From Psilocybe cubensis (Eukaryota), in contig CM039010.1 of the NCBI GenBank assembly GCA_017499595.2, forward strand, positions 1,116,001 to 1,180,000: a stretch of 64,000 bases of DNA, read 5' to 3'. Of this stretch, positions 5,560 through 24,774 are shown one piece after another. The notes beneath the pieces were generated by a model, which saw only the letters and a list, made by a program, of their open reading frames with translations, was not told the DNA's origin and searched no databases. Position 1 is the stretch's first letter; every line of letters starts with the position of its first letter. Made by a program: the position numbers and the translations under genes.

Positions 5560-8500
5560 ATGGCCAGCGAAAGCGATCTCAAAGCCTTTATCTCCCAACA
5601 ACGCGTCCTGCTCTCCAAAGAACGCGATGCAGAGATCGAACGAAGCTCACTGCTATTATCGAATTGCGGACCCAAGCTCCTCGAGCAAAAGGGACTGGCG
5701 CTAGGAGGACTCGGGATAGTCGGGATGAACATCGGGCTGGGAGGCAAAACGTGCGTTTACAATTTTCTCGTTTCTCTTGTTCTCTCTCGTTCGACGTTCT
5801 TGCTGGTCGTTTTTGTGTTGGTGTGTTTCGGATGTGTTGACGTTCTTCGAAGGAAGGCTAGTGGAACTTGAACGACCGACCGCGTACCACACCAGTCCTC
5901 TGTTCCCTCCACATACGTTCAGGTAAGCCAATACGTTCTTTTACTAGTACGGAGGATGGTTTCTGATATGCTCTTCGACGAGAAGGCCCGGGGATCTCGC
6001 ACGTATTGAAGCCAACGTAACTGCAAACGCGTCGGCCAAGAAACCAAAGGCCTCTACCACAGACGTCAAAGGATCTCAAGCCGAAGGAGTGGTCTACAAG
6101 GTACGGCGGTGCAGCGCTCTCGCGTTATCCTTTTCAGACACTGATGGATACCGCGTAAGGTGTCTGATACCCGTATCGTGATTGCAGTAGACTCTACAGA
6201 GGGCAGCTCTGAAGACCTCGACCTACCTGAACGATGCCGAGTTTTGAAATTAGCCAACAGTGTTACCTACGACAGGTGATTCACCACGCACCAACCATTA
6301 CGAACGCTAGGAAAACTGACCAATGGCGTCGTATAGGATGGACAAGGCAATCAATCAGCTGGAAAAGATACTCTTTCCCTCAGTCAGTTGCGTTTCGACA
6401 GACGGGTATATGATCGACCCACTTAATCTATCTAGGGAGAGGGCAAACCTGCCGGGGAATTGACCAGCATGATACAAGTCCTTCTCGGAATGAAAGCTCC
6501 ATCCAAGGAGCCTCTGGGTCCCATCCAGTTTTACGATGAAAGCTTGAACGACAGCCAGAAAACGGCAGTCAGGTTCTGCTTGGAATCACCAGAAGTCGCT
6601 TGTATCCACGGGCCTCCAGGTACACTATCTCATCGTTTATGCTAACTAGCGTTGGCTTAACATATTTACGATATACAGGCACAGGGAAGACACATACACT
6701 CATCGAAGTAATCCGACAACTAACGGCTCAAACACCCGTCAACCCAAAACCAAAACGTGTCCTCGTATGCGGCGCCTCCAATCTCTCGGTAGACAACATC
6801 CTAGAACGACTGTTGGCACTACCAATCACAGACAAATCTCAAAAACTCAAAGTAACAAGGATCGGCCACCCAGCACGCGTAATGGCCCACGAAGGCGTTC
6901 TAGAATCCACTCTGGAAGTGAAAGCTACTCGGACCGATCAAGTACGTCTGTTTCCTGGTTTGAAAGCTCAACATATCCCATTAGATTGACCTTGACTCCA
7001 GGCTGCACTTGCAAGGGATGTCAAAGATGAATTAGAAACTACGTTAGGGATATTATCCGGGAAAGGTAAAGGGGTAAAAGGCAAGGGTCCCCGAGGCGCA
7101 GAGCGCAAAAAGCTATGGGAAGAAGTCAAAGCTCTTCGAAAAGAGTAAGATCTCTCCGTGGATTTGATCTATTCTCCCTTTTTTTCATCTCCTTTAACAG
7201 GTATCGACAACGCGAAGGAGGGGTTGTAAAGACCGTTCTCAAAGAGTCACAGGTAAATTGCAAATCAAATATCCGCTTCTTCAACGAGACTGTTTACATA
7301 CGCGTTGCAATTTCTAGGTGGTACTAGCAACGTGCCACTCAGCTGGAGGCAGGCAGCTCAACAACGAGGAGTTTGACGTTGTCATCATCGACGAGGCGAC
7401 ACAGGCAATCGAAGCCGTACGTCATGAGCCGTATAGTAATTTACTACATGGTACCTAACTGCAAGTTTTTTTTAGGTTTGCTGGATTCCAATTTTCAAAG
7501 CTAAGAAATTGATTCTGGCGGGTGATCCGATGCAGCTACCGCCTACTGTTCTGTCTCTCGACAATGAGAAAAAGAAGAAGAAAACGGTTGCGAAAGTTCT
7601 TCCTTCGAAAGCTGCAAAAAAGGATGTCAAGGCGAAAGGCACCGGCACCAAAGTAGCCAAAGGACCTCCTGCCGCAGACGATAACGTCTCCGACGCCGGC
7701 TCCTCAACAAGCAGTGAATCAGATGAACAAATTGCAAAAGCCGTGGCTTCTGTCTCATTGAAGAATAAAGGGTCCTTCAAGCTAGTCCCTCCACAAAGCC
7801 TCGAGACAACCTTGTTTGATCGACTAGAAGCAATGTACGGTGCTGGAATCAAGCGCATGCTGGAGGTGCAGTATCGGCAAGTGTTCTTATTAACGTTCAA
7901 TATCTCTCCGCTAATTGCGGTACTCTTCCTTCTAGCATGCACGAACAAATCTGCGACTTCCCATCTAAAACCCTATACGGAGCGAAACTCAAGTCGCATT
8001 CATCAGTCGCATCCCACCTGCTGCGCGATTTGCCCAACACGGAGGCTAAATCCGACGAAGACGCTAAAGAGTTTCTTGAGAGCCCTGTAGTGTTCTTTGA
8101 CACGGCTGGGTGTGAGTACTTTGAGCGGTTGGACGGCGATGGAGATGAGGGAAGCCGGTGCAACGAGAATGAGGGCACGATCGTTGCCAATTGGGTACAG
8201 AACCTTGTGCGTGTCCGTATACTATTCGTTTGGGGCTTTTTCTAAATGCTTTTGTTTCAAGGTGGACGTTGGACTGCTGCCGAGTCAAATTGCTGTTATC
8301 ACTCCGTACGTGGATTAGTCACAAATGGGTCAATAGAAGCACAGCGCTGACCGCAGAAATTATAATAAAAAAAACCAGATATCAGGCGCAAGTTACACTC
8401 CTAACATCCCTTCTGCGACCCAAATACGGACCTACACTGGAGATAGGCAGCGTTGACGGCATGCAGGGACGAGAGAAGGAGGCTGTTATCATTTCGCTAG

Positions 8501-9508: not shown

Positions 9509-10196
9509 AGGACCCGGGAAGCTCCCGTACAGGCATGTCTGGATTTTTGCGGATTTGAGGCCAAAAAATGGCAATTTCTTTGTCCAGTTCTCACGGATTT
9601 GAGGGCGCCGCAGGCAAAATTTTGGCCAGACAAAGTCCGGTTTGGCGGATTTGAGGCCCATATTTTAAAAAAACTTCTGTAGTAATTGTTCAAAGGCAGC
9701 ATGCCACAGTCATTTTTTCCCAGATGCAGCTAATTGTTGGCCAAATTTGGGGCCGGAATCCCGCTTAGATTGCAATGATTGGCCAGTGTCTATTATCTAA
9801 GAGCGATAGATGATGGAAATCAACGGAAACGCACAGTAGTAAATTAAAGCAAGGTTACATTTCCTATATACAGCATATTGGTGAAACTTGAAGACATCTT
9901 TTCTCTGCTACCCTGACATATTTCTTCACTATCCTGATAACTAGTAATGGAGGTTCCACCTCCTCAAAATCCTTCCCCTCGAGGCCTGTAACACCTAAAT
10001 ATCTACTCCATATGTTTCTTTTGCAATCAATTAATGACTTGTTGAACCGTCGAGTGGTTTTGCAAGCTCGTCCCGCAGGGCTGAAAAAAATTCCTAATCG
10101 GGAAAGCCCCTATCGGGCATTGTCTGGTTTCGCGGATTTGAGGGCAAAAATTGGGATCCCAGGCGGACATGCTTATAGGGGAGCTTCCCGGGTCCT
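9509..10196. mobile_element. Non-autonomous TIR DNA transposon (MITE, ~690 bp, hAT-like)
   Basis: Imperfect ~30-bp TIRs AGGACCCGGGAAGCTCCC-TA-A-GCATGTC at both ends; identical flanking 8-mer AATTAACT (9501-9508 and 10197-10204); internal CGGATTTGAGG x4; no transposase ORF. Confidence 0.8.
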
Positions 10197-10760
10197 AATT
10201 AACTCGATATTGAATTTCACGCGGTTATGCTTACGGCCAGTGGTCTTATTCTCGTGTCACTGATACAGTGACACCTACGAGGTGTGTACGCCCCATTTTG
10301 GAGGTACGTAGCACCCCGCGTTGTTCGCTGCGTCTCGTTTGAGGGGCGGCGCGAGTGTTGTTGCGCCCGTATTTGGCCCTTATTTGGTGGCGTGCCGTGC
10401 GTGCCAGGTCGCTGGCCGTTGTCGGCCGAGGCTTGGCCCGCGTGATCGCATCAACGTTGTTATTTTTAGCGCCCGTTCCGTGGTCTGTGTTGATTCCACA
10501 ATGTGTTAGGTTGTCGAATTTTAAAGTTGTAGTTTGTATTTACACCGCGCAATAATATAAAAGTATAAAGCGAATCAGAAGTATGTTATGAGACAGTCAT
10601 AGTACAGTACAGATTCTCCGTTAAATAAAAATACATCCTAGGTGGGTATGTCATGTACAACTTGCAAACAGACGAAAGCGAAAGCGAAAACATAAACCGA
10701 AAACGAAAACGAAAGTGAAAAGAAAAAAGAAAAAAAAAAGTCCGAACAATTCCATGGCCA

Positions 10761-13700
10761 TCAATACTCCTCAAAATCCCCATCGGAAAGCGAGGCGTAC
10801 TCGGACACGGACTGGTCGTCCTCATACTCCCTCACAACGTCGCGCATCGCATAGCGCATGATCGGGGTCAAAGGCAACAGTTTGGGGCCGACGACCTCCA
10901 TCACCTCTTCAAACACATCGTGCTGCATCATATCCTCCTCCTCCTCCTCCTCCTCCTCTTCATCTTCTTCCACCTGTTCGCCATGGTCCTCACCCTGCAC
11001 GGCGTCCTCTTCCACGTCCACGCCTACGCCTACGCCCGCGTGCTCCTCGCCATGCTCGGCGGGCTCGATATCGTCGATCGGGGGCGGCGGGCCGAGAAGG
11101 TCGAGTGGGACTGGTGTCCCGCTGGAGCTTCCGGCGACAGCTCGGCCACCTGCTGTATGCTGTGAGCCCAGCGCGCTATCTCTAACAGCCTGCGCAGGCG
11201 TCATTCCCACACCCACGCCCACGCCCACACCTACACCCGCGTGTATCCCTACACCCACACCGGCGCCCACCCCCGCGCCTGTCGCAGCGGTCCCCTCCCT
11301 CGTGACCGTCTCCGTCCACCGCAAATCCAACACGCGGGCTCTAACCATCCCATCTACCGCGCGCACGCCGAGCTCCCTGCATAGATGGAAGTACGGCAGG
11401 TACTGCGTGTCCGCGCGCGCGAGGCGGCTCATCACTTTCAACAGCTCCATCGCCGTGAACTCGGGTGCCAGCCCGCCCCCGCCTATCCCTACCCCCGCTC
11501 CCAGACCTCCGAGACCTCCAAGTCCACCGCCATAACCATAACCACCACCGAAACCGAACCCGCCGCCTAGCGCGAACGGGTAAGCAGACGCCGATAACCC
11601 GTACCCAGCCCCGAACGCAGCGAGATCTCCACCGAGAAAGAAGGGCCCGTTCATCATCGACGCCGCGCCTGCGCCCATACCGTGGTGTGTCAGCGGCGAG
11701 TAGATCTTGAATCCCGCCGGGCCGAGCGCGGGATGCAGCGTGTCGATTGTGCTGGCGTTCGCTCCTACCGATGCAGCGCCGCCCGCGCCGCGCGCGGCGC
11801 TGGAGGATGCGTCGCCTGCTTCGGTTGGCGGGCCACCGCCTGATCTGGATGCCTGTGACGAGTGGATGATGTGTAGATTTAGGAGCGCGTGTGCTTGGAG
11901 GAAGTGTGAGCTCTGTTTGACTGTTTTGTTTTTAAAGTTAATATTGTTCTTTTAGATAAAAATGAAACGTGTGATTTTCGACTTACTATCCAACGTCCCA
12001 TTCGAATTAACTACCCAAATCGAAAAAAAATATCCAAAATCAGCTCAGCAACAACAACAACAACAACAATTAGCAACAAAAAAAGGAGGGGAACACACAC
12101 CATAATCCGTAATATAATCATCCCAATGCGCCAACTTTCCCCCAAACGCATCAAACAACACCTCAAACACCAGGCCCGCGCGCATGCGCTCCGGCACACG
12201 CGGGATAACGCGCTCGTGGAAGAACCGGCGCGTTTCCGCTTTGGAGCAGTCGCCTATCGTTATGATCTGCCGGTCCATCAAAAAAAATAAAAGTCAAAGT
12301 TAAAGTCAAAGAAAAAGAAGAAGAGGAAGAAGAAGAAGAAAAAGAAAAAGAAACAAAAAAAAAAAGTCAGCGTCAGCGTCTCAAGATGAGATTATCATGC
12401 ACACGAGAGAAAAAGACACAAAAAAACTGACTTTACAATGCTGCATCACATTAAACTGCCTCAACCACGCCTGATAAAACGGGTCGCTCGTCGCGTGGAT
12501 AACGTGGCACAGCCGGTCCTGCTTCGTCAGCACGAGCATAGAGTCGAGCAGGCATTTCAGTGTTTCGGGGGATTGGATTAGCGCGGGGCTGGATGTGAGT
12601 TGTGGTTTTTTTTTTTTTTTTTTTTTTGGGGGGGGGCGGTGTTTTGGTGATTGGCATTGATTTTGGTGTTTGGTGTTTCAGCGATGGATAAATTAACATT
12701 TAGCGTCTTCGTCATGAAAAAAAAAAAAGGAAAAAAAGAGGCAAAACGTACAGTTTATGCGCTTCGTCAAAGAAGATGACCTATTCATCGAATTCATCAA
12801 TTCAGAAAAAAAAAAACCAACAAAATGAAAAGAAAAACGTACCGGCATCCTTTTAACAAACTTGCCCCTGCCCCTCGCCCTCCCTCTCCCTCTCCCCCTG
12901 CCCTCCTCCTTCGCATTCGCCTTCCCTCTACCCTCCTCTTTCCCCCTCTCATTTACCTTTTCCCTCTCCCTCCCCTTCCCCTTCTCATTCACATTTCCAT
13001 CCCTATACCCATCGTTCTTGGAACTCTTCCGAGCGCCCCAATGCATAAATCCCCACCTCGATTTCGTCTTCGTCTTAGCCTTACCCTTCTCATTATCTTC
13101 GTTCCCGGAATTCACGCTGTTCCGATCCATATCGGCGTTGACGTTGACATGTGTCCTGTTCGAGTCGCCCGAAGCTGACGCTGAGGCTTGTCTTCTGTTC
13201 GTATTCGCATTCGCATGCGGGTTGCTTGCAGTGCCAGTGCCAGTACCAGAGCGGCTGTGGTTATTGTTATTATTACGACCCCGTCCCTGTCCCTGTTTCG
13301 GCGCTTTACCGCCCTGGCCCTGGCCCTCGTCATCGAAGTCGGTGTCGAAGTCGGAGTCGGAGTCGGAGTCGGAGTCGGTGTCAAAGTCGGAGTCAGGTTG
13401 GAACGCCCAGTACCTCACCAGTGCGCTCTACCAGTATCAATATCAATATCAATATAAATATCAGTATAGATGTCAATAAAACACGCAGCGCAGCGCAAAT
13501 CAAAAAAAAAAGAAAAAAAATCAAAGGGATATAACGTCATTTTTTTCAAAACAACCCCCAAAAACACCCCAAAAAATAAAAAGGAATGAGCATGGATATC
13601 ACATCTTCAACTCCAAAAAAAAACAATACACGAATTAATGGATTAGTGGATTAGTACGTACCCGGAAAAGCTCCATAAGCCTCGCGACGTCGCTCGTCGT

Positions 13701-15373
13701 CACGCCCGCTTTAAGGTGCGGGTTACCGTTACCGTTACCGTTACCATTGTTGGCGTTGGCGCCGCTGTGATTGTTGGCGCTGGTGGAGTTGGAGGTGGTG
13801 GAGGTGGTATGCTCGAGGATCCGGCGCTCGACGCTTAACCTGTCATGCTAGAAAGATATAAAACGTAAGATTCTACTTTAATCGCACAACCTCAATCGCA
13901 CAATGCACAAATCACAATCCCAAATTAAAGGAAAGGAACAAAAAACAAAAATAAAAGACAGAAGACATACCTTGAACACCCACGCCTCGCTCTCGAACAC
14001 CTCGTACCCCCCCTTGCCCTTGCCCTTGCCCTTCCCTCTCCCTCTCCCCTTGCCTCTCTCTTTGTCCCCTTCGCAACACCCACCCTCGCCACCAGCACCA
14101 GCACCCGAAACACAAGCACAACACCCACCCCAACCCCAAGCACAAGCACACCCAACCCCTTCAAAAAACCTCTCCATCTGCACACTCAGACTCGTATACA
14201 AACTTCCCAGATCGGAGAAGGCGGCGATGCGGAGGTCGAAGTGCAGGGTGTGGTATTTGGTTTGATGGGGGTTATGATTTTGGTTGGAGTTTGAGTTTGA
14301 GTTGGGGGTGGGGTTGGAGAGGAGCGCGCGGATGATCGACGTCTGATACAGTTATGCCATGTTATTTTCGTGTTATTTTCATTTCGCGGTAGATGGGTAG
14401 ATGGGTAGGTAGGTAGGTAGATGTGTGGTGTGTAGCGTGCGGTGAAATTTAAAAAAAATGATGAGATTAACGAAGACGAAGACGAAGAAAACACAGAAAA
14501 AAAAAGAAACAACACAAACCTTCCCAACCCCCGAAGCTCCAAACACGACCGTCCACGCTGGCTCGCCGTCGAGCACTTTTTGGAGGGCGCGGGTTTCGCG
14601 TTTGCGTGGGAAGAATGTGGCGGAGGTGGGGTTTCTGGACGGGCGTTCGGGGGCGCGCGCGTGCGCGTGCGAGTGGGTGGGTGCGCGCGAATGGGTGGGT
14701 GGGTAAGAGTGCGACCGTTCGTGCGAATGCGCGCACGGGTACGAGGGCGAGGGCGAACCGTGACAAGAACAAGAGTGCGCATGCGAGTGCAAGTTCGGGG
14801 GAGAACAAGGGCAAGAATGAGAATGCGACTCGGCGACCTCGAGCCTGTGCTGCGTCTCAGCGAGGAGCTTTCTCGATTCCGTGAGGGAGCGGAGCGTTTC
14901 TGAGGGCTGGAGGTGAAAAAGGATTTTTTGTTAGATGGGGTTTTTTTTGTTTTAGAGAGGAGGGAGAGGGAGGAGGGAGAGGGGAGAGGAGAGGAGAGAA
15001 AGGAGGGAGAGAGAGAGGGCAGAGAAGAGGGAGAGAGAGTAGAGAGAGAATACAGAGCACAGAGCGTAAATCACAGAACCCAAAAAAAAACCAACAAAAA
15101 ACACACACGCACATGAACAACAACCCCCAGAATATCCCCCATCCCCATCCCGAAAAAATTCCTCCCCTGCGGATCAAGCGATATATACGAAGCGCGTTTG
15201 TGCGGGATGTTGCTTCTGAAGAGCCACTGGATTTGTGCGAGTGGGTTTTTAGATCTGGGTTTAGTTTTGACAGGGTTTTTGGAGTCGGTGGGAGATGAGG
15301 TGGGAGAGGTAGGGGAGGGTGGTGGTTTTCTGAGTTTGCTGTGGGTATTGGTATTGCTGTTGGCGGTGGACAT
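10761..15373 (-). CDS. P-loop ATPase (AAA_16/archaeal-ATPase-like) with numerous low-complexity insertions, multi-exon
   Basis: 'FFPRKRETRALQKVLDGEPAWTVVFGASGVGK' (Walker A), 'YHTLHFDLRIAAFSDLGSLY', Walker B 'MP|VIFFDEAHKL', 'LTKQDRLCHVIHATSDPFY', 'FDAFGGKLAHWDDYI'; start position approximate. Confidence 0.75.
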
Positions 15374-16022
15374 GAATGTGTTGGACGAGCTGCGAGCTGG
15401 CGGTTCAGTTACGTGCAGTGTGCGGCAGTGCAGGGGTGTTATGAACCAGACGCAGTACTTGATTCAGCCAAAACAGATATCCAAGTGCAAGTGCGAGTTC
15501 AAGATACAAGCTGCAAGCAGATGGTAGATGGTACAAGAGAGAGAAAGAGAGAGATACGAGCGCGGTGCAAGATACCAGTTACGAGTTATGAGACACTAGA
15601 CACCAGACACCAGACAAAAGACACTAGAAGCCAGCGAACATGCGGGCGCACCGTGGATATACAGTCGTACAGCTCGTGGTAGGTGGTGTATTTATGTCCT
15701 TGTCCACGTCCACGTCCATGGGCACGGAGCATGGGCACGGAGCATGGAGGATGACGGCAGGCCGGGTGCAGGGGAGGGGCGGAAGTCGCGAGGCAGCATC
15801 GAGGAGCGAGGAGGGTGGGTTGAAGCAGACGCGTGCCCAGAGCTATCTTTAAAGCGATGCCGCTAGCATTTGATTGCAAAGAGAAGAGAAGAGACTAGGA
15901 TTCATCACTTTTTCATCAAAGCATAGCGTAGCGTAAAGTCGAGCAAGTCATCCAATTCTGTTAGAAAAAAGAATACAAAACAAAGTACAGTCGGGAAATA
16001 AAAATAGAGAAAAAAACGCAAA

Positions 16023-19000
16023 TCACCAGGCATCAGAATCATCGTCGCTGTCCGACACAATGAAATGCGTGCGACGCGTGGATCTAGATCTGACGTCATC
16101 ATGAGGGTCAGGGGGCGACAGGCTCGCGAAGAGCTCAGCCAAGGTCGGGTGGCGACGCGCGGGCGTCGAAGCGCGCATATCGACATCGACATCCCCTCCC
16201 TCCTCATCCGAATCATCCGCAAACAGATCAGCCAACCGCTGCATCCGATCCGAATCGTCACTTTCGTGCACAGACTCGGTATCACTGCCATCCGACATCA
16301 CAGCCCGCCTTGTCCTCCGCACAACCACCAACTCCTCCTCCTCATCGTCATCAAGATCAACCGGCCCGTCACCCCCCTCCCCCTCCTCGTCGTCGTCCGA
16401 ATCTTCAACAACGATATACCGCCGTCGCGCATTTCCCCGCCGCCGCTCATCGACGACTTCGACCTCCTCATCACCATCATCAATAAAACTCCCTTCCTCC
16501 TCATCATCCTCATCGTCAACCTCCTCAATCTGAGCAACACCACCACCCCACGCATCATTACCTGCAGGATGGAAATAAAGAGGGTGAACAAGCTCGTTCA
16601 GACGCTCCAAATCGACACGAGCCCGCCGACCTTGGGAATCCTCATCGTCGTCAACACCAATCTCATCTTCATCCTCATCATAGTCAACAGCCCCCAAATT
16701 CCTCAAATGCTCTTCAATAGCCTCAATATTCCTCCCCCAAAACGGATGCATCCCCTCCTCATCCCCATCTTCTTCATCATCTTCACTATCATCATCACTA
16801 ATACCCATCTCCCTCCTCACTCTACGCATATACCTCTCATCCCACAAATCTCCCCCACCCCACCCATCCTCATCCCCCTCCCCATCCTCCTCCTCATCAT
16901 CATCCTCATCATCTTCTTCACCACCCCGCCCCCGCCCCCGCCCCCGCCGATGCCCCGGATACACCCTCCGACACGCCGAACACACCCCATCCCAAATCTC
17001 ATGATAACAATCCACACACCGGTGGATCCCCCCGTCCTCCGCATCAAACCACCCCATCTCCTCTCGATCCCCCTCCGTCTGCACCCGTGGCTCCGCAGGA
17101 CCAGCAGCGCCGGCTCCTGCACCAGCCATACGGAAAAACGCCTCGAACGCGCTTATTGCCCCGCCTGCGTTCGCACCTGATCCTGACCCGGAGCCTGCGC
17201 GGCGGAACACATTACGCCACGGATCCGCATTCCCCGCTCCTTCCCCCGCCGCCGCCGACCCCTCCAACCCCAACCCACCAGCCCCCGCCCCCGCACCCAA
17301 ATCCACAAGCCCACTCCTCACAAGCGCCCCAACCATATCCTTCACACCCCACATCTCCACCGGGCGCTCAACCACCACCGCACGACACACCGGGCACTTT
17401 TTGCGACGCCGGATGTACGTCCCGCTGTGTGCTGTGGGTGTGTTGAGCAGGGCGTCGATGCTTGTGTCTTGTGCTTGTGCGTTTTGTGCTTGTGCTCCTC
17501 CTGGTGCTGCTGGTGCGTCTTGTGCGTCTTGTGCTACTCCTCCTCCTGCTGCTGCTGCTGCTGCTACTGGTGCTGGGACCGCGTTGTTGGCGTTATTATT
17601 CGCGTTCGCGTTCTCCCCACTCTGCGGCACAGGCGCCGTAAACCACCTAACCAAACACCCATAACACGTAACATGCCCACACGGCGCGAGCGCATAGGGC
17701 CTGTACATCAGATCCAGGCATATCTGGCACGTCAGCGATTGGTGCTGGTGCGCGAGGTGCGTTTCGTGCCGCGCGAGGAGCTGGTGGGGGAGGGCGAGGG
17801 GGCGGGAAAATTACGGTTAGAGTGGACGGATGAGGGGTGGATGGGTACTTACAGAAGCCTGTGTAGCAATCTGCGCTTTCAACTGTGCAATTTCCGAAGC
17901 TTGCGCTTCTACCTCTGCTTGTGCCTGTGCATGGGCTTGAGCGTGGACTTGTGAGTCGGGTGAATTTTGTTGGGATTTCGATTGAGATGGGGATGGGGAT
18001 GGAGTCGACGGGGGTCGGGGTTGGGGTTTGGCTTTTTCCTTGCCTTTCCCTTTGCTTTTTTCTTTGCCTTTGCTTTTTTCTTTGCCTTTGCTTTTGTCTT
18101 TGCTTTTGCTTTTGTCTTTGCTTTTGCCTTTGCCTTTATCTTTACTTTTATTTGAAGACTGAAAAATGAAAGGATGAGGAATCAGCATATCGAATCAGAT
18201 CGCATCCAAAATAAAAATAAAAATAAAAACAACATTTTTGAAAAAAACAAAACAAAAAAAAACTTGTGGTTAGAAAATGTAGGAATGGAAAGGAGAGGAA
18301 GGAGAGGAAAGTGAAGAAAAGGGAAGGAGGGGGAAAGTGAATGGAAAGAAAAAAAAACGAAGCAAAGTACAAAAAAAAAGAAAAGAAACAAGAGACGTAC
18401 GCTCACAGCCTCCTCCTCCTCCTCTTCCTCTAAATCCCCCTCCCCCTCCTCCTCCAAATCCACATCCATATCCAAATCCACCTCCGCGCGCCACGACCGC
18501 GACCGCGACCGCCTTTTCAAAGGCGAGACCGATCTGCTTGGTCCCCTGTCCCTCGTCGCGCTCGTGCTCGTGGTGTCCCTTTGCCGGTGCTTTTGCTTTT
18601 GCTTGGTGGTACTGGTGTTAGTGTTGGTGCCTGCAGCAGAGCCGCTTCCGCTTCCACTTCCACTGGCACTGGCACCGCGCACTTCCATCTCCACTTCCAC
18701 CTCGCCCTCCACCTCAGAATCGACACCGTTCTGTCGCTGTACTTCAACTTCAGCTTCACCTTGAGCTGGAGCTGTAGCCTGACCCTGGCCCTCGACCGGT
18801 ACAGAGCCAGGGACAGAGCCAGGGACAGAGGCTTGCACAACCGACACCCTCCTCCTCTTCTTCTTCTTTTTCTTCTTCTTGTCTCTTTCTCGTTCTTTTT
18901 CTCGGTCTCGGTCTCGGTCTCGTTCTTTTTCGCGTTCGTTGGCTTTTTCGCGTTCCTTGTCTTTCTTCGCTTTCTTCGTCGCTCTCTCTTTTTCTTTCTC

Positions 19001-19429
19001 CTTGTTCTTCATTTTATCTTTCTCCCGTTCCTTATCCCTAGCTCTCTCCGCCCCTTGATCCATCCTTCTCGAGCTCGAGCTCGAGCTAGCGCCCGCACCC
19101 ACACCCGCGGTCGACGACCCATCACCCCCAACATCAACATCAACATCGAGATCAAACCGCATCCTCTTCCTCTCCCTCTCCCTCCCACTGCCACTTCCAT
19201 TCACCGTGCCACCATTCACCGTGCCATTTCCACCACTAACACCCCCCTCGTGTCCATCCGACCCCGCGCGTTTCCTTCTATTGGATTTTACAGTGTTGAC
19301 TGCGTTTATGGGCACAGTCGCGGATGAAGAACCTGGTACTGGCATTGGTCCTGCGGCTGGTCCTGTGGCAGAAGTGCCTGCAGCAGAAGTGGAAGCGGGT
19401 CCGGGTGTATGGCGCGTCGCGACGGGCAT
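16023..19429 (-). CDS. RING-finger E3 ubiquitin ligase, PSH1-like (RING + second Cys motif + long acidic tail)
   Basis: RING 'LTCQICLDLMYRPYALAPCGHVTCYGCL...CPVCR' (split by a low-complexity insert); 'DAEDGGIHRCVDCYHEIWDGVCSAC' motif; Asp/Glu-rich C-terminus; about 3 exons. Confidence 0.75.
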
Positions 19430-19513
19430 TGGTTGGTCTGCGTGTCCGCGTCCGTGTCAGTGTCCGTATATACGTATGTGTATGTGGAGGTGTATGTGTA
19501 GATTATTCGGCAA

Positions 19514-19672
19514 TGTGATGTGATGTGATGTGATGTGATGTGATGTGGATGTGGATGTGGATGCGTATGTGGATGCTATGAGATGAGTGTCGAAGTGTTG
19601 AGTGTCGAGTGTGTCGATGTATCGAGTGTCGAGTCAAATCCCAGTCAAACCCAAGTCGCTGAGTCGAGTCGA
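19514..19672. repeat. Compound microsatellite: (GTGAT)n grading into (GTGGAT)n, then degenerate GAGTGTC/GAGTC repeats
   Basis: Directly visible tandem repeats immediately upstream of the RING gene. Confidence 0.85.
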
Positions 19673-20749
19673 AGAACGAGTGGTCCGAATGAGCGTTTAT
19701 ACTACGTCTACGTCGTATCGCGTCGCGCTGCGTCCAAGCACGCACAGTAGTACAAGAGAAAAGCGAACTCTCGCTGGAGAGGACACAGTCAAAAGCGCTG
19801 GACAGGCACAGGCACTACCAACGATAGTGATAGTGACTGAAAGAGAAGCGAAGAGAATCGTCAGAGTCAAAGAGTCAAAGAGGCACAAAGCACAAAGCAC
19901 AAAACGCAGGCAAACGTTAAACGTAATCCGTTATTCCCACGATGTAATATCATTAAATTTGAATATAAATTTAATTAACGCACGTCGCGTAATCTGATAG
20001 TATTAGTAATAGTAATAATTACGCAATTGTATTTAGTTGCAAGATTAACAAATAATAATATAATGTGGGTCTAAGTCCCGATTTGGGATTTATTATGTCA
20101 GGAAATGTGTATATAAATCCGTTCGGCGATGGCCGTCCATCCAGCGATCCGTCTTGGACTTCACTTGGACTTGTGCTTTGAATGCTCAACGCGTACGTTA
20201 ACGTTCAACGTTCAATGGCAGCGATTTGGAAATTTGGCAATTTGGTGGTTTGCGTGCGCGGGGCGGTGTAATAAGCAAGAGTAAGCAGTGGATATTATAA
20301 GGAATTGTTTTCTGCTTTCTGTTTTCCGTTTTCTGTTTTACTATGTTTTCTGTTCCAGCCGTTGTCCTCTGAATGGGGTGTACTAAAGAATGCCGCTAGC
20401 CACTTGAATTTTTTTGTTTTTTCGGTATTTCAAAGTGGTATGTTTCAACTTTGCTTCGCTTTGTTGAGGTTGAGGTTGCCTCGACTTGACTTGCATTTTC
20501 AAATCTACTTCTCGAGAGTCGAGATGACAAGCTGGAAATAATAGTATACGAGACCATCTCGAAGCGACGGCGAACAAGCTTCATTCAAAAGTCAAAGTCA
20601 AAGTCAACGTCTCATCTCCTCCTTCTCCTTCTTCAAATTCTCTCTATCATCGCTTCAAACCGCCTGCTCTCACCGGCATCAGTGCGCGACAAAATCCTCA
20701 ATCACAAAAATCTAAATCTTCTAGACCTACTAGTAAAAAACGAGTGTAT

Positions 20750-20970
20750 CACTGCTGGCACCCATTCATATATGTCAAATAAAAACAGATTAGACACACG
20801 TTATGTGTTTGATTGAGTGCCTTTTATTGACATTTTTTAGAGAAATATACTTCGGAAGTGCATTCCGAACCATATTTCTGGAAAAAAAGTCAACAAAAAC
20901 AACATGTTAATATACAAAACGTGTATCTGATTCGTTTTTATTTGGCATATATCAATGGCCTCCAGCAGTG
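20750..20970. mobile_element. 221-bp foldback MITE with CACTG...CAGTG termini (CMC/CACTA-like)
   Basis: The whole element is an imperfect palindrome (CACTGCTGG..CCATT.ATATATG.CAAATAAAAAC on both arms) centred on TTCGGAA-GTGCA-TTCCGAA; TAT on both flanks is a candidate 3-bp TSD. Confidence 0.8.
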
Positions 20971-21383
20971 TATACTTTCATTGAACTACTTGCTAGAAAA
21001 GACAAGGCAATATGAGGCAAGGTAAGGGCAAGGTAAAGACGTCCATGGGGATGCACATGTATAAAATATAAAGTGTAAAATGTCATACAAAATACGAAAT
21101 ACTAAATACCAAAACTAAAAGAACGAACGTCGTACATACATACGTACATCTATACATGAAATAAAGAAATATGAAATAGACCATCACAAAAAATACCTTC
21201 ACCTGCACCTGCCCACTTACAACGACAAAGAGTTACAAACCTCTCCTTTGGAGAAAAAAAAAGCCTCTCCAAAAGAGAAAAAAAAGGACCTCTCCAAAAG
21301 AGAAAGAGAAAAAATAACTCAAACTCGAAACAGGAAGAAAAAAAAATCGAATAGAAAAGAAAGAACAAGAAAAAAACGAAAAA

Positions 21384-23571
21384 TCACCCAATCCGACTCT
21401 TCAAACTTCCCTCCCTCTTCTCCTTCAACTCCACCGCGGCATACAGCGCGCCTCCAATGAGCGTAAGCAAGATGCCCAGTCCATTCGCGGGTGTGATCGT
21501 CAAATCAAAGAGAACAACCGCCGAGAGGACAGTAAGCACCTGCTTCACATTCGCTAAAATATAACGCACCGCAAGGAATCAGCAAATCAGTAATTAATCA
21601 CAGAGATGGATTTACCACTCACCAGCAACACTCATACCCAGCGCCCCGACCCTTTTATTCGCATTAAAACTCACAACATTGAGCAAAAACGCCAGAACCC
21701 CATTCAAAATCAACCACACCCGTCCATTCACATGCACTTTACCCCCCATCCCCATCCCCATGCCCCCCGGCATCCCCGTCCCACCCATCCCCGACCCGAC
21801 CGTCAAAGCCGGGTCAAACAAATGCCACCTCACCCTCTCCAGCTCCCCCGTAAAATGCGCCAGCAGCGTCGTCTGCACGAACGCGAGCGGGGAGAGGAGG
21901 TATAGTAGGTGGATCGGGCTCAGCGAGAGCTTGGGCAGCGCGCGCGCGTGTGCGATGCCCGTGCCGGATGATGATGTTGTTGTTGTTGTTGTGCTAGAGT
22001 GCATTTTCACTGCGTATGTAAGGGGCGCTGGTGTGGTTGGTGTGGTGTTTGAGTGTATACTATTGTTATTGCCGTCGCCGTTGCTCATAATAGTGGATGT
22101 GGACGTGGTGGATTGTGGAAAGACGCGCTTGACGAGGTTGGATGAGACGGATGAGATTAATGATGGAGCCTGCGCGCGTTTTTCGTCGTGGACCGCATGT
22201 GCGCTGTCGACTGGGGATGTGGAAGCCGAGGTGGAGGTGGCGATGGGCAGACCGGAGGAAGAGGGTTTGACGAGGATAACGTTCGTCAGGATCGTTTTGA
22301 GCGACGCGAGAACCGTTCCGAGGAGGGTAAGGAAGAATCCGAAAGGGGTGAAATAGTAATCCCCGTATGTGCTGCAGAGAAGAGAAGTAATCAGCAACAC
22401 GAGCAACCCAAGAGTCATCAGGGGAGTCGACGCACGCGAATCCAACGCCAATGACCACTGGTACAAGTGAGAGTAGTTTTCGCCTGCTACTGCGTTTTCC
22501 TAATAACGCAGCTGCGAACATGATAGTGAAGAATGGCGTCGAAGCGCGCACGACTTGATGGAACTATAATAATATCCATCGGACGTTTTTATTCCAATTA
22601 GCCGCGTGTTAAAAATAGCCAGCATAAAGACTTACAGGCACAGTCACAAGGCGGAGCGACGCGTTGCTGACGACGATGTTGATGGTGTATAGAGTGCTGA
22701 ATAACAATAGTACGATATATTCTCTGCCATTTAGATTAGGCACTGGTGTTGATTGAGGCTGGGCTGCGCTAGTCATGCGGGCGCCTGTCAAGTGGGAGTG
22801 GGAGTAGGAGCTCTGCGCGGGTGCAGAGTTCACCCTCAGAAGCACCCGCGTCCCAATCGTCCCACAAAACGCGTGCAGCGCAGTAAGCGTGTACGGGAAA
22901 GGAAAGTGTATGAGAACGGTCTTATTATACAGCGTCAGGGAGAGATTGAGGAAGAAGTACAGGAACAGCCAGAGGAGGGGGGAGTCTGATACAGCGCGTA
23001 GGCGCGCGGGGATAGGAATGGGGATGCGCGTGGGTATAACCGCGCGTGTGGCTTTGAGTATCGGCGATGCGTGCCGCGAGAGCTGGACCCTGATCTTCGA
23101 ACTCGAAGGCGCGTTCGGCTGCGCGGCGGAGCCGCCACGGAGCAGACTCTCTTTGTCGTACTCGTACTCGTACATGTTCGATTCTGAATCTGCCGGTGAG
23201 CGGGATGAAAGTAGAAGGTCCTCGGTCGATGGGAACGCGGAGGGCGATAGTTCGTCTGTATGGTATTTTCGTCGGACTTTGGCGGTTGGGCCTGGTCCGC
23301 CTTCGAATGATGCGTATTGGGATAGCGCGTCCTCCTTCCCGAAGCTCCCTGCTGAGCCAAATGGTGAAGGGCCGACATCGCCTGGGTGCGCTCTCGGACG
23401 TATCGAACCATTTAGTGAGGGCTCTTGATTTGCGAACTTTGGCGCATCCGTGGATGCTACAAGATACACATTCTCCAAATCCTCGTGCCTAGAAGAAGAC
23501 GAAGAAGCAGACACAGCGGGGTTGGCGACTGACGTCAAAACAATAGAAGGCGTAACCAACGGCGTCGACAT
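21384..23571 (-). CDS. Triose-phosphate/nucleotide-sugar transporter (TPT, DMT superfamily) with long N-terminal extension
   Basis: 'WLFLYFFLNLSLTLYNKTVLIHFPFPYTLTALH', 'NIVVSNASLRLVTVP|FHQVVRASTPFF', 'LNVVSFNANKRVGALGMSVA|ANVKQVLT'. Confidence 0.88.
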
Positions 23572-24774
23572 TGGAAGCTCAAGTCTGTTGGAAGACTCGG
23601 AGAATTGAACTGAAAGCCAAAAAAAGATAGGGCGAGTTGGGCGCCGCTTTGTGTTTTTTTTTGCGATAAAGAGATTTGTGTGTCGGGGGAATACAGCATT
23701 AACATTCAAGTCAGTATTTATGCATTTATCTCCCCTTCCTGTTTTGTCATTCTTGTCACAGTGATCGTGTGGGTTGGGATGCATTTCGTGCTGAGCTATA
23801 TATAGTGCGTTCGAACTCTACCCGCCTTCCGTAATTTTCATCGACGAAATCAATGAAAAGTGTATTTCTTATAGTAGGATATCAGCCAAATACGTTTCTA
23901 TACTTGATAAAATCTATTCCACTCCAGTAAACGGGTATATCCTTGGTGTCGAACCTGCGGGCACTTCAAGGTGCCATCATTACATTCATCAGGCCCTACG
24001 AGTACTTGTTGATAAATAATTAGGCGTTGAACTTTCAAGCCTCTCAGTTCCAAGACGCAGATAGAAATAACTCTAACTGTGTTCCCAATCCTTCTCCATC
24101 TTCTGTTTTTTAATTTATGTTCTCCGGGCATAAGCCATCAAATCCACGAATCCACAACCTTTATAACCATTTCACAACTCTAGATTTTGAGGTCGATTTT
24201 AACTGACGTCATACCCTCAAAATTTTGATGACTATATCTTTTACACATGCATGGACTGACCTCAAATTCAGTTCATCGTGCAAGCCATAGTCACTTAGAA
24301 AATTCTTGCCAAGGCTCAAGATGTAGACGGGGCGGCGTATAAACTAGTCCATCATCGGCGCACAGTAGCAGCGGATCCGTCTTTCTAGCTGCCTTGAAAT
24401 CTTGTAGCTACTAAGCTAGTCTACCCACGTCACCAATGCCAAAATAAGCGCTCCTTCTGGACCCATTTTTGTACACAGTTCTCCGGCATCATCGGCTGCT
24501 AACCATAATTCTCACGCTGCGCCTTCCTAATTGGGGAGACGGCGGCCCAATGGTCTCCAAATCACAAAAGCTATGCTCGTCTCAACCACCAACTAGATCC
24601 TTTATAAAGCTCTGCGGCTCTCCTTCTACATTTCGAAATCTTCTGCTTGATTGTAAGAGGTTGAATTTAATCTGAAGGTTCTGCCAAAACTGATCCTCCT
24701 TGTTCAGTCAGACATCATCATCATCAATTAATAGCCAACCTTCCTGAAGCGTATTCGAACGAAGACTTTCCAGG

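Follow-up and report, generated by a model that had tools for sequence, protein, structure and literature searches.

Strand-coordinated mutation clusters at resected double-strand breaks, known from the 'single-switch' clusters of single-stranded DNA (ssDNA) hypermutation in yeast, are among the described systems closest to the locus reported here. Yeast work describes bidirectional resection as leaving C of the top strand mutated to the left of the break and G to its right (PMC6786661). The 12-kb composition island examined here in Psilocybe cubensis is like these clusters in having one strand per patch and a point switch between strands, and on average its AT troughs lean weakly to the left-top/right-bottom polarity. 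Whereas the yeast clusters are single somatic events with few mutations, usually of C only (by APOBEC or alkylation), the island has a fixed, near-saturated germline composition in which A and C are both affected, the pattern returning in some dozen neighboring units and going together with tandem repeats.

Transcription-associated asymmetry in vertebrates is described as a G+T excess on the coding strand (PMC2927911, PMC10030826). It shares with the island the keto/amino axis and, at most conserved sites, the direction, but the sign in the island is not tied to the transcribed strand and flips within exons. A skew whose sign tracks the transcribed strand throughout a gene fails as an account, because the flips occur within exons, in genes on the same strand and at conserved codons. 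To our knowledge, the amplitudes reported for such asymmetry are far below that of the island, where KM3 is as high as +1.0 over 12 to 16 codons.

Cryptic simplicity and coding micro- and minisatellite clusters likewise have dense short arrays, repeated dipeptides and variable loops enlarged by lineage-specific insertions; unlike them, the island carries its block bias at conserved, nonrepetitive silent sites as well and has two mirror-image states. Immunoglobulin class-switch regions and other R-loop-prone G-rich repeat tracts also combine kilobase-scale short repeats with G clusters on the nontemplate strand, but they are intronic, of one sign, programmed and served by a dedicated deaminase, whereas the tracts of the island have both signs and lie in housekeeping-type genes, in exons and introns alike, and in the spacers. 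RIP resembles it as a fungal, regionally confined, strand-patchy transition process, but it acts on duplicated DNA, changes C to T only and leaves AT-rich sequence. We rejected RIP because A is depleted as much as C, exon GC is 0.58, CpG-containing hexamers are enriched in the island and the genes are single copy in the window; repeat scans found no long duplicated copies. GC-biased gene conversion, which would raise G and C at silent sites of both strands alike, was rejected as the cause because T occupies 90% of the twofold pyrimidine-ending sites of GT-rich blocks and GC has risen with a strong strand skew; it could be a cofactor at most.

Three conserved genes lie in a 12-kb composition island

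The window analyzed is a 64,000-nt stretch of P. cubensis DNA (GCA_017499595.2, contig CM039010.1, forward strand, 1,116,001 to 1,180,000), and positions below are those of the window. Short tandem repeats are dense in the island, which also contains blocks of CA/GT and of CT/GA skew, G4 motifs and long homopolymers, those of at least 8 nt occurring at 1.64/kb inside and 0.14/kb outside. An earlier note on this DNA had placed the blocks at 11700 to 22340, and they are found there, but the true limits of the island are wider, at about 10750 and 22950. As that note had stated, the three ordinary conserved genes inside share a strand, which is the minus strand.

10750..22950, no strand: composition island, with exons of GC 0.58 and AT-rich introns and spacers of GC 0.39
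10761..15373, minus strand: gene A, encoding a P-loop (GxxxxGK) protein that is conserved in fungi and fits no Pfam family clearly, matched by tblastn to orthologous loci
15373-15113, 14906-14520, 14342-13971, 13847-13662, 13427-12843, 12780-12752, 12588-12432, 12266-12101 and 11920-10761, minus strand: the nine exons of gene A, stop included
16023..19429, minus strand: RING-finger (C3HC4) gene, from Pfam zf-C3HC4_2 (E 1.7e-8), homologues and alignment
19429-18401, 18158-17853 and 17780-16023, minus strand: RING gene exons, junctions read by hand
21384..23570, minus strand: triose-phosphate-transporter-family (TPT/DMT) gene, exon limits approximate, from alignment and tblastn

The hand-read junctions of gene A are all GT..AG with consistent frames, the intron ends were confirmed, and several of its exons are swollen by dipeptide repeats. 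Its Pfam search returned just a weak nSTAND1 match (E 4e-4), below the cut-off. The RING protein is 1030 amino acids long, compared with 608 to 745 in the seven named relatives aligned; the open reading frame (ORF) at 18182-19456 was rejected as a separate sequence, being RING exon 1. PF03151 matches the ORF at 21612-22499 weakly (E 3.1e-6) and is carried by the TPT homologues. By tblastn, the order TPT-RING-gene A is common to other Agaricomycete contigs.

The pattern was missing from all 22 loci compared, which were orthologous or related and 3 kb or longer (sd of KM, 0.105 to 0.207), and six orthologous spans had 0 to 1.6 TRF arrays/kb and 0 to 0.32 G4 motifs/kb. Genes flanking the island elsewhere in the window are without its skew. 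The skew, whose block structure in ordinary genes had been raised as an objection to a mutational reading, is absent both from the ordinary genes in the window and from the loci orthologous to the island. Judged by this comparison of sequences, the island state is derived and lineage specific.

CA-rich and GT-rich blocks alternate within exons

Blocks were called with 61-bp smoothing at |KM| ≥ 0.33 and a length of at least 60 bp, which gave 34 in 10750-22950 and 7 in the other 51.8 kb of the window. The 34 (20 CA and 14 GT) measure 64 to 411 bp, with a median of 116 bp, and cover 38% of the island. The island had an sd of (G+T-C-A) per 100 bp of 0.301, compared with 0.124 for the remainder of the window; shuffling the island 200 times gave 0.099 ± 0.006, so that its local keto/amino skew is three times that of the shuffles. 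This CA/GT axis lies just above the purine/pyrimidine axis (0.301 versus 0.286).

12566..12687, minus-strand gene: strongest plus-strand GT block (KM +0.70), lying towards the 3' end of intron 6 of gene A and containing T22 followed by G9
14587..14705, minus-strand gene: plus-strand G-rich block, formed by ~70 inserted codons of Ser/Ala-His repeat in exon 2 of gene A (~18 residues in orthologues; judged against orthologous locus L010)
16200..17399, minus-strand gene: longest coding-strand GT-rich domain (plus strand CA-rich), ~1.2 kb, in the last RING exon
17481..17600, minus-strand gene: 40-codon lineage-specific insertion between RING halves, N/A/G/Q-rich, with GCA, CAA, GGA and CCA codons
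21607..21848, minus-strand gene: plus-strand CA block in a TPT exon, with G/T-ending conserved codons (KM3 +0.71 to +1.00) and a (Gly-Met)n insertion
21879..22370, minus-strand gene: plus-strand GT-leaning part of the TPT exon, with mostly C/A-ending conserved codons and an S/T/N-rich loop insertion

Every block named in the earlier note was recovered by a 200-bp profile and by segmentation. In the profile of the plus strand, 12000-12199 is CA-rich (GC skew −0.455, AT skew +0.518) and 12500-12699 GT-rich (+0.447 and −0.415), and the pair passes from −0.714/+0.111 at 14000-14199 to +0.535/−0.267 at 14200-14399. Segmentation divided RING exon 3 (17780-16023) into CA at 16666-17076 and 17232-17380 and GT at 17421-17533, and found both signs (CA 21607-21848, GT 21955-22128) in the TPT exon within the ORF at 21612-22499. 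At conserved codons, the sign flips within single exons of TPT (at ~21876) and of gene A (exons 1, 3 and 8). On the GT-leaning side of the TPT flip, KM3 is −0.67 to −0.11 in 9 of 10 runs, the remaining run, of six codons at 21921-21938, being +0.33. CA-to-GT switches lie inside exons of 157 to 390 bp and GT-to-CA switches in AT-rich introns; on the coding strand, CA richness marks first-exon 5' ends and GT richness the last RING exon.

Silent sites of conserved codons follow the blocks

The proposal that synonymous choice tracks the block was borne out, including at conserved, nonrepetitive codons. At 271 conserved-codon sites in coding-strand GT-rich blocks, the third base was A.08, C.08, G.45 and T.38, compared with A.20, C.26, G.25 and T.29 in orthologues; at 65 sites in CA-rich blocks, it was C.62 and T.05, compared with C.42 and T.27. 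Because the orthologues are at most ~50% identical overall and saturated at silent sites, these are comparisons of equilibrium compositions, not mutation spectra. Fourfold sites mirror each other between the block types (119 GT-rich sites: G.61, T.20, C.12, A.07; 34 CA-rich sites: C.50, A.26, G.18, T.06), which fits one process acting on either strand, while base use in orthologues at matching conserved sites is near uniform. Twofold pyrimidine-ending sites were T at.90 (n = 84) in GT-rich blocks and C at.95 (n = 19) in CA-rich blocks, and Leu was encoded by TTG in 17/37 and 1/19 cases, respectively. In the conserved codons of GT-rich blocks, A was depleted as strongly as C. Fourfold GC was 0.68 to 0.76 in the island and 0.49 to 0.54 in orthologues. 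Heterogeneity of K/M over 100-bp bins gave a χ2 of 231 (df 49), whereas orthologue draws averaged 75 and never exceeded 106.

The effect was most extended in the last RING exon. Third positions at 16026-17399 are 79% G or T (G 202, T 162, C 60 and A 34 of 458), with all codon families shifted to G/T endings, and the K fraction is 0.67 to 0.95 in 11 of 12 100-bp bins, compared with 0.36 to 0.62 in orthologues (the bin at 17100 has 0.50, compared with 0.43). Long conserved, nonrepetitive stretches are 80 to 95% G/T-ending: all 16 codons at 16965-17012 end in G or T, as do 0.93 of 28 conserved sites at 17300-17399.

Tandem repeats and insertions account for a large share of the blocks

TRF arrays were ~20 times denser in the island than outside (153, or 12.5/kb, versus 30, or 0.58/kb) and took up 25.5% and 1.3% of bases, respectively, with a period of 6 in exons and of 5 to 7 elsewhere. 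Identity at lag 6 was 0.401, compared with 0.311 in composition-preserving shuffles (z, 22 to 28), lag 12 had a z of 17 to 19, and noncoding parts of the island were periodic at lags 5 to 7. Direct 9-mer pairs at most 1.5 kb apart numbered 834, against 188 ± 33 in shuffles.

Several blocks are lineage-specific repeat insertions. All seven relatives aligned lack RING amino acids 71 to 110 as well as the (GM)n tract and the loop of TPT. The insertion at 17481-17600 (alignment columns ~288 to 333, absent in 7/7 relatives) has a KM3 of −0.85, and TRF finds periods of 3, 9 and 45 at 17474-17576. The flip at 17421-17610, a plus-strand G/T-rich block of the earlier note, is a CTG/GCA-type repeat insertion in a uniformly G/T-ending exon and does not mark a new mutational direction in sequence that was already there. 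No TRF array lies between 16956 and 17459, and third positions of the RING domain have no excess specific to the 6-nt lag (0.394, 0.401, 0.420 and 0.377 at lags of 1 to 4 codons), which argues that the silent-site bias is not simply copied repeat units.

G4 motifs occur at 3.93/kb, compared with 0.06/kb elsewhere (~65-fold), with 44 of 48 on the coding strand and 4 on the other; G runs of at least 3 number 204 on the coding (nontemplate) strand and 132 on the other.

Noncoding parts are skewed and AT troughs show a weak average polarity

Introns and spacers of the island are as skewed as its exons (sd, 0.32 to 0.34 per 60 bp, compared with 0.15 in the rest of the window). In the sense direction, the 5' third of gene A introns has a KM of +0.18 to +0.65 in 7/7 tested, and the 3' third is negative in 4/7. 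At 14 objectively picked AT troughs of the island, the plus strand is GT-richer to the left than to the right (mean, +0.265; positive in 9/14; Wilcoxon P = 0.033 in a weak, post hoc test with assumed break sites), a polarity inseparable from that of splice sites because all island genes lie on one strand. At 50 troughs elsewhere, the mean contrast is 0.021 (positive in 26/50). The other 5 of the 14 are flat or opposite, and of the five from 20012 onwards, all but one fail.

A proposed local mutational hot region and its alternatives

The persistence of skew at fourfold and twofold sites, in introns and in spacers argues against amino acid composition as its sole source, the other objection foreseen. 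Together with the absence of blocks from ordinary genes and the mirror-image composition, this makes patchy strand-asymmetric substitution bias the best reading. The earlier note's inference of patchy strand-asymmetric mutagenesis is thus supported in part, by silent, intronic and spacer skew and the mirror-image states, but it is incomplete: many of the blocks consist of short tandem repeats and of insertions specific to the lineage that slippage-like duplication has made, a component that the note under-weighted.

We weighed several other accounts. Slippage alone, with each block a decayed short-motif array and nearby silent sites changed by misalignment-templated spreading of motifs, would explain the array density and coverage, the periodicity beyond local composition at lags 6 and 12 (5 to 7 in noncoding DNA), the surplus of 9-mer pairs and the insertions, such as 17481-17600, (Gly-Met)n and the S/T/N loop, that every aligned relative lacks. 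We nevertheless consider it unlikely, given conserved nonrepetitive stretches that are 80 to 95% G/T-ending, the array-free 16956-17459 interval, third positions without a 6-nt-lag excess and mirror-image base frequencies, unexpected from independent motifs. Less likely still is transcription-linked R-loop/G4 instability, whereby a displaced G-rich coding strand is damaged, G+T is reinforced and repeats are destabilized, opposite patches being insertions or products of antisense transcription. The bias of G4 motifs, which are predicted, to the coding strand (44 versus 4; 3.93/kb versus 0.06/kb) and the preponderance of coding-strand GT-rich conserved sites (271 versus 65) suit it, as does a direction matching the coding-strand G+T excess described for vertebrates (PMC2927911, PMC10030826). 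It is at odds with the sign flips in single exons of same-strand genes, with exon 5' parts that are systematically CA-rich on the coding strand and with spacers that are skewed too.

Selection on RNA could favor GU-rich sequence around 5' splice sites and AC-rich sequence around 3' splice sites as splicing signals or as intron-bridging pairs. In the AC/GT introns of teleost fish, repeats at the intron ends pair and thereby bridge them. Such AC/GT-repeat introns are described in a teleost study (PMC4691745). The 5' and 3' thirds of gene A introns have the corresponding signs (7/7 and 4/7), and the minimum-energy fold of those four introns joins both ends with 23 to 26 pairs; yet the folds are no stabler than mono or local shuffles (z, −1.8 to +1.0), blocks continue within exons for hundreds of bases, in the RING exon for 1.2 kb, at a great distance from any junction, first-exon 5' ends and spacers are patterned without an adjacent splice site, and orthologues splice the same genes without the pattern. 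We regard this account as improbable. Asymmetric repair across nucleosomes is an existing concept, and positioned exon nucleosomes between poly(dA:dT) introns might impose different damage or repair on each strand half, with sign changes at dyads or linkers. The median block of 116 bp is comparable in size to between half a nucleosome and a whole one, the switches fall in 157- to 390-bp exons and AT-rich introns, and homopolymers of at least 8 nt are frequent (1.64/kb versus 0.14/kb), but the single-sign 1.2-kb RING domain spans several nucleosomes, and we know of no such effect near the amplitude of the island, which leaves this account very improbable. That the island is an assembly or polishing artifact or foreign DNA is scarcely credible: we found no point in its favor, reading frames continue unbroken for 1030 and for more than 1000 codons and keep their invariant residues, every hand-read intron is GT..AG, the gene order is common to other Agaricomycete contigs, and runs from three further studies contain 26 to 65% of sampled words.

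The explanation that we favor, at a little short of even chances, is a lineage-specific local mutational hot region that combines strand-asymmetric substitution with tandem duplication, presumably through exposure of ssDNA. In an Agaricales lineage, a 12-kb stretch with three anciently linked same-strand genes would have become such a region. Substitutions would have depleted one strand of A and C and enriched it in G and T in patches of ~60 to 400 bp (~1.2 kb in the last RING exon), the favored strand changing between patches. Constrained codons would record this at silent positions only, and loops, introns and spacers at all positions, unconstrained loops becoming low-complexity peptides of Gly/Val/Trp type or Pro/Thr/Gln/His type. 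Repeated tandem duplication of ~5- to 7-bp units, of which exons would keep only multiples of three (6, 9 and 12), may have added roughly 300 to 400 residues to the RING protein. As the cause, one strand may have been repeatedly exposed as ssDNA, its amino bases deaminated (C to U, A to hypoxanthine) and the strand refilled by error-prone, slippage-prone synthesis. The ssDNA would most plausibly arise by 5'-to-3' resection that starts where introns and promoters, AT-rich and carrying poly(dA:dT), are broken or nicked, or alternatively at R-loops or G4 structures.

Because resection bares opposite strands on either side of a break, sign switches would then be independent of the direction of transcription. 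We count for resection the CA-rich first-exon 5' ends and the GT-rich last RING exon, which the splicing account does not predict. We propose tentatively, and with clearly less assurance than the hot region itself, that the island is the fixed footprint of recurrent ssDNA hypermutation, with strand switching at AT-rich intron or promoter breaks or nicks ~0.6 to 1 kb apart. If so, strand-coordinated clusters, which until now are known only from somatic or experimental events, would have in it a natural counterpart that belongs to the germline and is near equilibrium, and the same hypermutation would seed short tandem repeats and reshape protein in unconstrained loops.

At fourfold sites, G exceeds T by ~3:1, which pure deamination does not predict and which requires an extra GC-favoring force or C insertion opposite abasic sites to be assumed. 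CT-rich blocks (12/122 windows) and GA-rich blocks (3/122 windows), 15/122 in all, are not explained by the substitution process and call for protein and intron composition. Variants inside repeat arrays showed a weak lean in the predicted direction, with M-to-K changes at 16/227 and K-to-M changes at 28/692.

An old syntenic block holds the three genes of the island

Three genes occupy the island (window positions 10750-22950), all of them on the minus strand; the earlier note had placed them on one shared strand.

15373-10761, minus strand: gene A, nine exons, read by hand with tblastn to orthologous loci as support
19429-16023, minus strand: RING gene, three exons
~23570-21384, minus strand: TPT-family gene

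The product of gene A is conserved and has a GxxxxGK loop; no Pfam family scored above the cut-off for it. Among named proteins, the closest homologues to the island genes come from Agaricales (Gymnopilus, Flammula, Hebeloma, Pholiota and Hypholoma) at ~45-57% identity. The order TPT, RING, gene A is also found on metagenome contigs of other Agaricomycetes (e.g., loci L010 and L022), so the island is an old syntenic block rather than foreign DNA. The matches to the three genes are co-oriented in L010, L022, L005 and L007; in L018 and L019 those to gene A and TPT lie on the opposite strand from the RING match, an arrangement that suggests local inversion in certain lineages. An AAA_11-type helicase gene of normal composition (7472-8090) flanks gene A, in L010 the orthologue of gene A has a helicase-like ORF beside it (15361-16176), recognized from its translation, and synteny appears, via these helicase genes, to reach past the left edge of the island. 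The ORFs flanking the island encode glycoside hydrolase family 7, Argonaute, biotin-protein-ligase and TPR domains.

We assigned the K/E/R/D-rich ORF at 18182-19456 to the RING gene as exon 1. It opens with the N-terminus common to the relatives, and the RING protein therefore has 1030 residues, whereas the seven named relatives in the alignment have 608-745. The 343 codons of exon 1 compare with ~130 residues that the relatives have ahead of the shared Lys-Gly stretch. A search for longer RING homologues found a single fused protein of 2349 amino acids and no close relative sharing the expansion.

Composition of the island flips in short blocks

We measured the keto/amino skew, (G+T-C-A)/n (here KM), along the window. 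In 400-bp windows it ran from -0.38 to +0.25 over 10.8-22.4 kb and stayed within +/-0.17 elsewhere. In 100-bp windows its standard deviation was 0.301 in the island (n=122) and 0.124 in the rest (n=518), compared with 0.099 +/- 0.006 when the island was shuffled 200 times. A simple segmentation gave 34 blocks in 10750-22950 (20 CA-rich and 14 GT-rich on the plus strand) and 7 in the other 51.8 kb; the island blocks have a median length of 116 bp (range, 64-411) and cover 38% of it. Each CA- or GT-rich block named in the earlier note was recovered with the composition profile and the segmentation. Alternation of CA with GT is the leading axis of the pattern but not the only one: the dominant letter pairs among the 122 island windows were CA (20), GT (14), CT (12), AT (6), GC (5) and GA (3), and the purine/pyrimidine axis was nearly as variable as the keto/amino axis (standard deviation of 0.286 in 100-bp windows). 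Beyond the island, 12 of 517 windows were dominated by two letters. Noncoding island sequence was as skewed as coding sequence, with a standard deviation of 0.32-0.34 per 60 bp, compared with 0.15 in the rest.

Silent sites follow the blocks

It had been proposed that synonymous codon choice tracks the local block. We examined conserved codons taken from tblastn alignments to 29 related loci, dropping two duplicate loci, keeping a codon if its residue and codon box matched at least three orthologues and classing each site by local skew. Blocks are described here on the coding strand, GT-rich on that strand being CA-rich on the plus strand.

Third-base composition at conserved codons of the island genes and their orthologues (fractions)
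Sites	n	A	C	G	T
GT-rich blocks, island	271	.08	.08	.45	.38
Same sites, orthologues	271	.20	.26	.25	.29
CA-rich blocks, island	65	.20	.62	.14	.05
Same sites, orthologues	65	.19	.42	.12	.27
Intermediate sites, island	338	.12	.38	.33	.17
Fourfold sites, GT-rich blocks	119	.07	.12	.61	.20
Fourfold sites, CA-rich blocks	34	.26	.50	.18	.06

At fourfold sites the two block types are mirror images. Pyrimidine-ending twofold codons ended in T in.90 of cases in GT-rich blocks (n=84) and in C in.95 in CA-rich blocks (n=19); purine-ending ones ended in G in.79 (n=63) and in A in.57 (n=7), respectively. For leucine, TTG made up 17 of 37 codons in GT-rich blocks and 1 of 19 in CA-rich blocks. Heterogeneity of G/T versus A/C endings among 100-bp bins gave a chi-square of 231 (49 df), whereas random draws from the orthologues averaged 75 and reached at most 106; at fourfold sites this axis was the most heterogeneous of the three (99, versus 65 and 67). 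The skew thus persists at fourfold and noncoding sites and is not reducible to amino acid content.

The effect can be followed codon by codon. In two conserved runs, 16965-17012 and 17631-17669, 16 of 16 and 13 of 13 codons end in G or T. Within one TPT exon, the third-position skew (KM3) changes from -0.64 at 21879-21911 to +1.00 at 21840-21875. The island had been drawn as ending at 22340, but silent-site flips run on through 22600-22950, in the N-terminal TPT exon, where the G/T fraction at conserved codons was 0.24 in bin 22700 (orthologues, 0.52) and 0.82 in bin 22800 (orthologues, 0.40). In RING positions 16026-17399, all codon families have moved to G/T endings relative to the pooled flank ORFs; at third positions of this segment we looked for an excess specific to a 6-nt lag and found none, and the silent-site bias is therefore not simply made of copied repeat units.

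Short tandem duplication pervades the island

With permissive settings, TRF placed 153 of its 183 arrays in the island, at 12.5/kb and 25.5% of bases, compared with 0.58/kb and 1.3% outside. A period of 6 was the commonest (49 of 153), followed by 12, 9, 7 and 3. Identity at a lag of 6 was 0.401 versus 0.311 in shuffles keeping composition per 30-bp bin (z, 22-24; 28 with 100-bp bins); z was 17-19 at lag 12 and 3-6 at lag 3. The excess fell at lags of 5, 6, 7 and 12 in noncoding sequence, defined by hand, and at 6, 9 and 12 in coding sequence, a difference as expected if units of ~5-7 bp duplicate everywhere and selection spares frame-preserving ones in exons. Alignment also placed several insertions specific to this lineage.

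17481-17600: 40 codons (GCA, CAA, GGA) between the halves of the RING itself, within a G/T-rich block of the earlier note
RING protein: (Gly-Ala), (Gly-Ser) and (Arg-Gly) runs
TPT protein: an S/T/N-rich loop and a (Gly-Met)n run
Gene A, exon 2: ~70 codons of Ser/Ala-His repeats

Telomere-like repeats were rejected as a component (TTAGGG count of 0 in the island), as was inverted duplication as the source of opposite blocks, the long inverted pairs merely matching CT-rich with GA-rich sequence or poly-T with poly-A. Inverted 9-mer pairs were in excess (387 versus 140 +/- 20).

The pattern is derived and confined to one stretch

The expectation that ordinary genes lack the block structure was borne out by nine flank ORFs, in which KM3 ranged only from -0.26 to +0.14. 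In twelve-codon windows, an absolute KM3 of at least 0.83 was reached in 5 of 279 from flank ORFs and in 20 of 49 from the RING ORF. Among the 22 of 29 related loci of at least 3 kb (the seven shorter ones were excluded), the standard deviation of KM was 0.105-0.207 and lag-6 identity was 0.262-0.308. Six orthologous spans carried 0-1.6 TRF arrays and 0-0.32 G4 motifs per kb, versus 12.5 and 3.93 in the island. Since flank ORFs and related loci lack the pattern, the island state is derived in this lineage and confined to one stretch of the window.

Where the blocks switch

On the plus strand, blocks tend to change from GT to CA within AT-rich introns or spacers and from CA to GT inside exons. 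In transcript sense, exons run from CA-rich to GU-rich (gene A exons 1, 3, 7 and 8 and the TPT exon), and introns start GU-rich and often end CA-rich. Across local GC minima of the island, the left-minus-right contrast was +0.265 and positive at 9 of 14 (p 0.033), a comparison chosen post hoc and so of limited weight that fails at 4 of the 5 troughs from 20012 onwards; elsewhere it was +0.021 and positive at 26 of 50. Homopolymers of at least 8 occur at 1.64/kb in the island versus 0.14/kb, almost all of them A or T runs in introns. The longest homopolymer pair of the window, T22 directly followed by G9, lies in gene A intron 6 (12606-12636).

Mechanism and alternatives

The blocks reported earlier are confirmed and strengthened by these results, and the interpretation offered for them, strand-asymmetric mutagenesis, is partly supported: there is a lineage-specific local pressure off the amino bases A and C on either strand, plus rampant short tandem duplication, and several of the blocks are instead lineage-specific repeat insertions. 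Variants within arrays, a proxy for recent mutations, go in the predicted direction, weakly.

Deamination of exposed single strands turns C to U and A to hypoxanthine and would be expected to act along the keto/amino axis. One yeast study describes a strand switch on bidirectional break resection, with lesions in the top strand to the left and in the bottom strand to the right (PMC6786661). By analogy, whichever strand is exposed in the island would have its amino bases deaminated, and exposure might start at breaks or nicks in poly(dA:dT)-rich introns and promoters. Such starting points would yield the sign changes within same-strand genes, the CA-rich 5' ends of first exons and the long stretch of GT-rich coding strand in the final RING exon, which adjoins the gene A promoter; out-of-register refilling could possibly produce the tandem repeats. 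The deamination account needs an extra GC-favouring force for the G:T ratio of ~3:1 at fourfold sites, and must leave the CT and GA blocks to other causes; bearing on these, Lys/Glu/Arg-rich segments also occur in relatives and introns are pyrimidine-rich.

Slippage alone is a rival that would draw on the dense arrays, and against it stands the silent-site bias, which is not simply copied units. Instability of the non-template strand through R-loops or G4 is another; the island has 48 G4 motifs (44 on the coding strand) and the other ~51 kb has 3, and the sign of the skew is not tied to the transcribed strand, in line with the earlier view that transcription-coupled bias alone is insufficient. 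The polarity of exons and introns could also reflect selection for composition flanking splice sites or for intron bridging. Against bridging, the stability of the intron folds does not exceed that of shuffles (z, -1.8 to +1.0); break polarity and splicing polarity are inseparable here because all three genes lie on one strand. Repair polarity imposed by nucleosomes is a further rival.

Among known systems, the island works most like strand-coordinated hypermutation of single-stranded DNA combined with cryptic simplicity. The island differs from transcription-associated asymmetry in the same independence of the transcribed strand. It differs from RIP: the exons are GC-rich, the depletion extends to A, and no long duplicated copies were found. 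It also differs from plain GC-biased conversion, since T takes up 90% of the twofold pyrimidine-ending sites in one of the block types. Class-switch-type G-rich repeat tracts are alike in anatomy only. A literature search found no match for a fixed patchwork of this sort in a fungal gene cluster, which does not prove absence.

Local mutation bias is usually weak and follows the direction in which DNA is replicated or transcribed. In this island, conserved genes have 80-95% G/T at silent sites, or the mirror state, in sub-kilobase patches that arise regardless of gene orientation, a pattern missing from relatives. If strand-specific damage to DNA exposed at fixed sites is the cause, the locus would record where germ-line DNA opens in a mushroom-forming fungus. 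It would also be a natural case of mutation pressure leading to low-complexity protein segments and G4-rich DNA, and a place for testing ties among recombination initiation, repeat birth and codon usage. For annotators the island is a warning: genes in regions of this sort will be misjudged by filters based on codon usage or low complexity.

Other features of the window

An isolated GT block at 60843-60925 (KM, +0.66), with a 30-bp repeat, sits in a minus-strand ORF (60678-61394) overlapping the region of the GH7 gene. The block has the look of an ordinary Gly/Thr/Ser-rich linker and not of the island phenomenon. Between the RING and TPT genes, spacer positions 20750-20970 form a near-perfect hairpin with 108-nt arms, 76% complementary and separated by 5 nt. 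A search of 10000-24000 against Rfam returned no family at threshold, the hairpin included. Its predicted fold of -55.1 kcal/mol, versus -20.2 +/- 3.4 in shuffles (z, -10.4), could be that of a small inverted-repeat element or a hairpin RNA locus.
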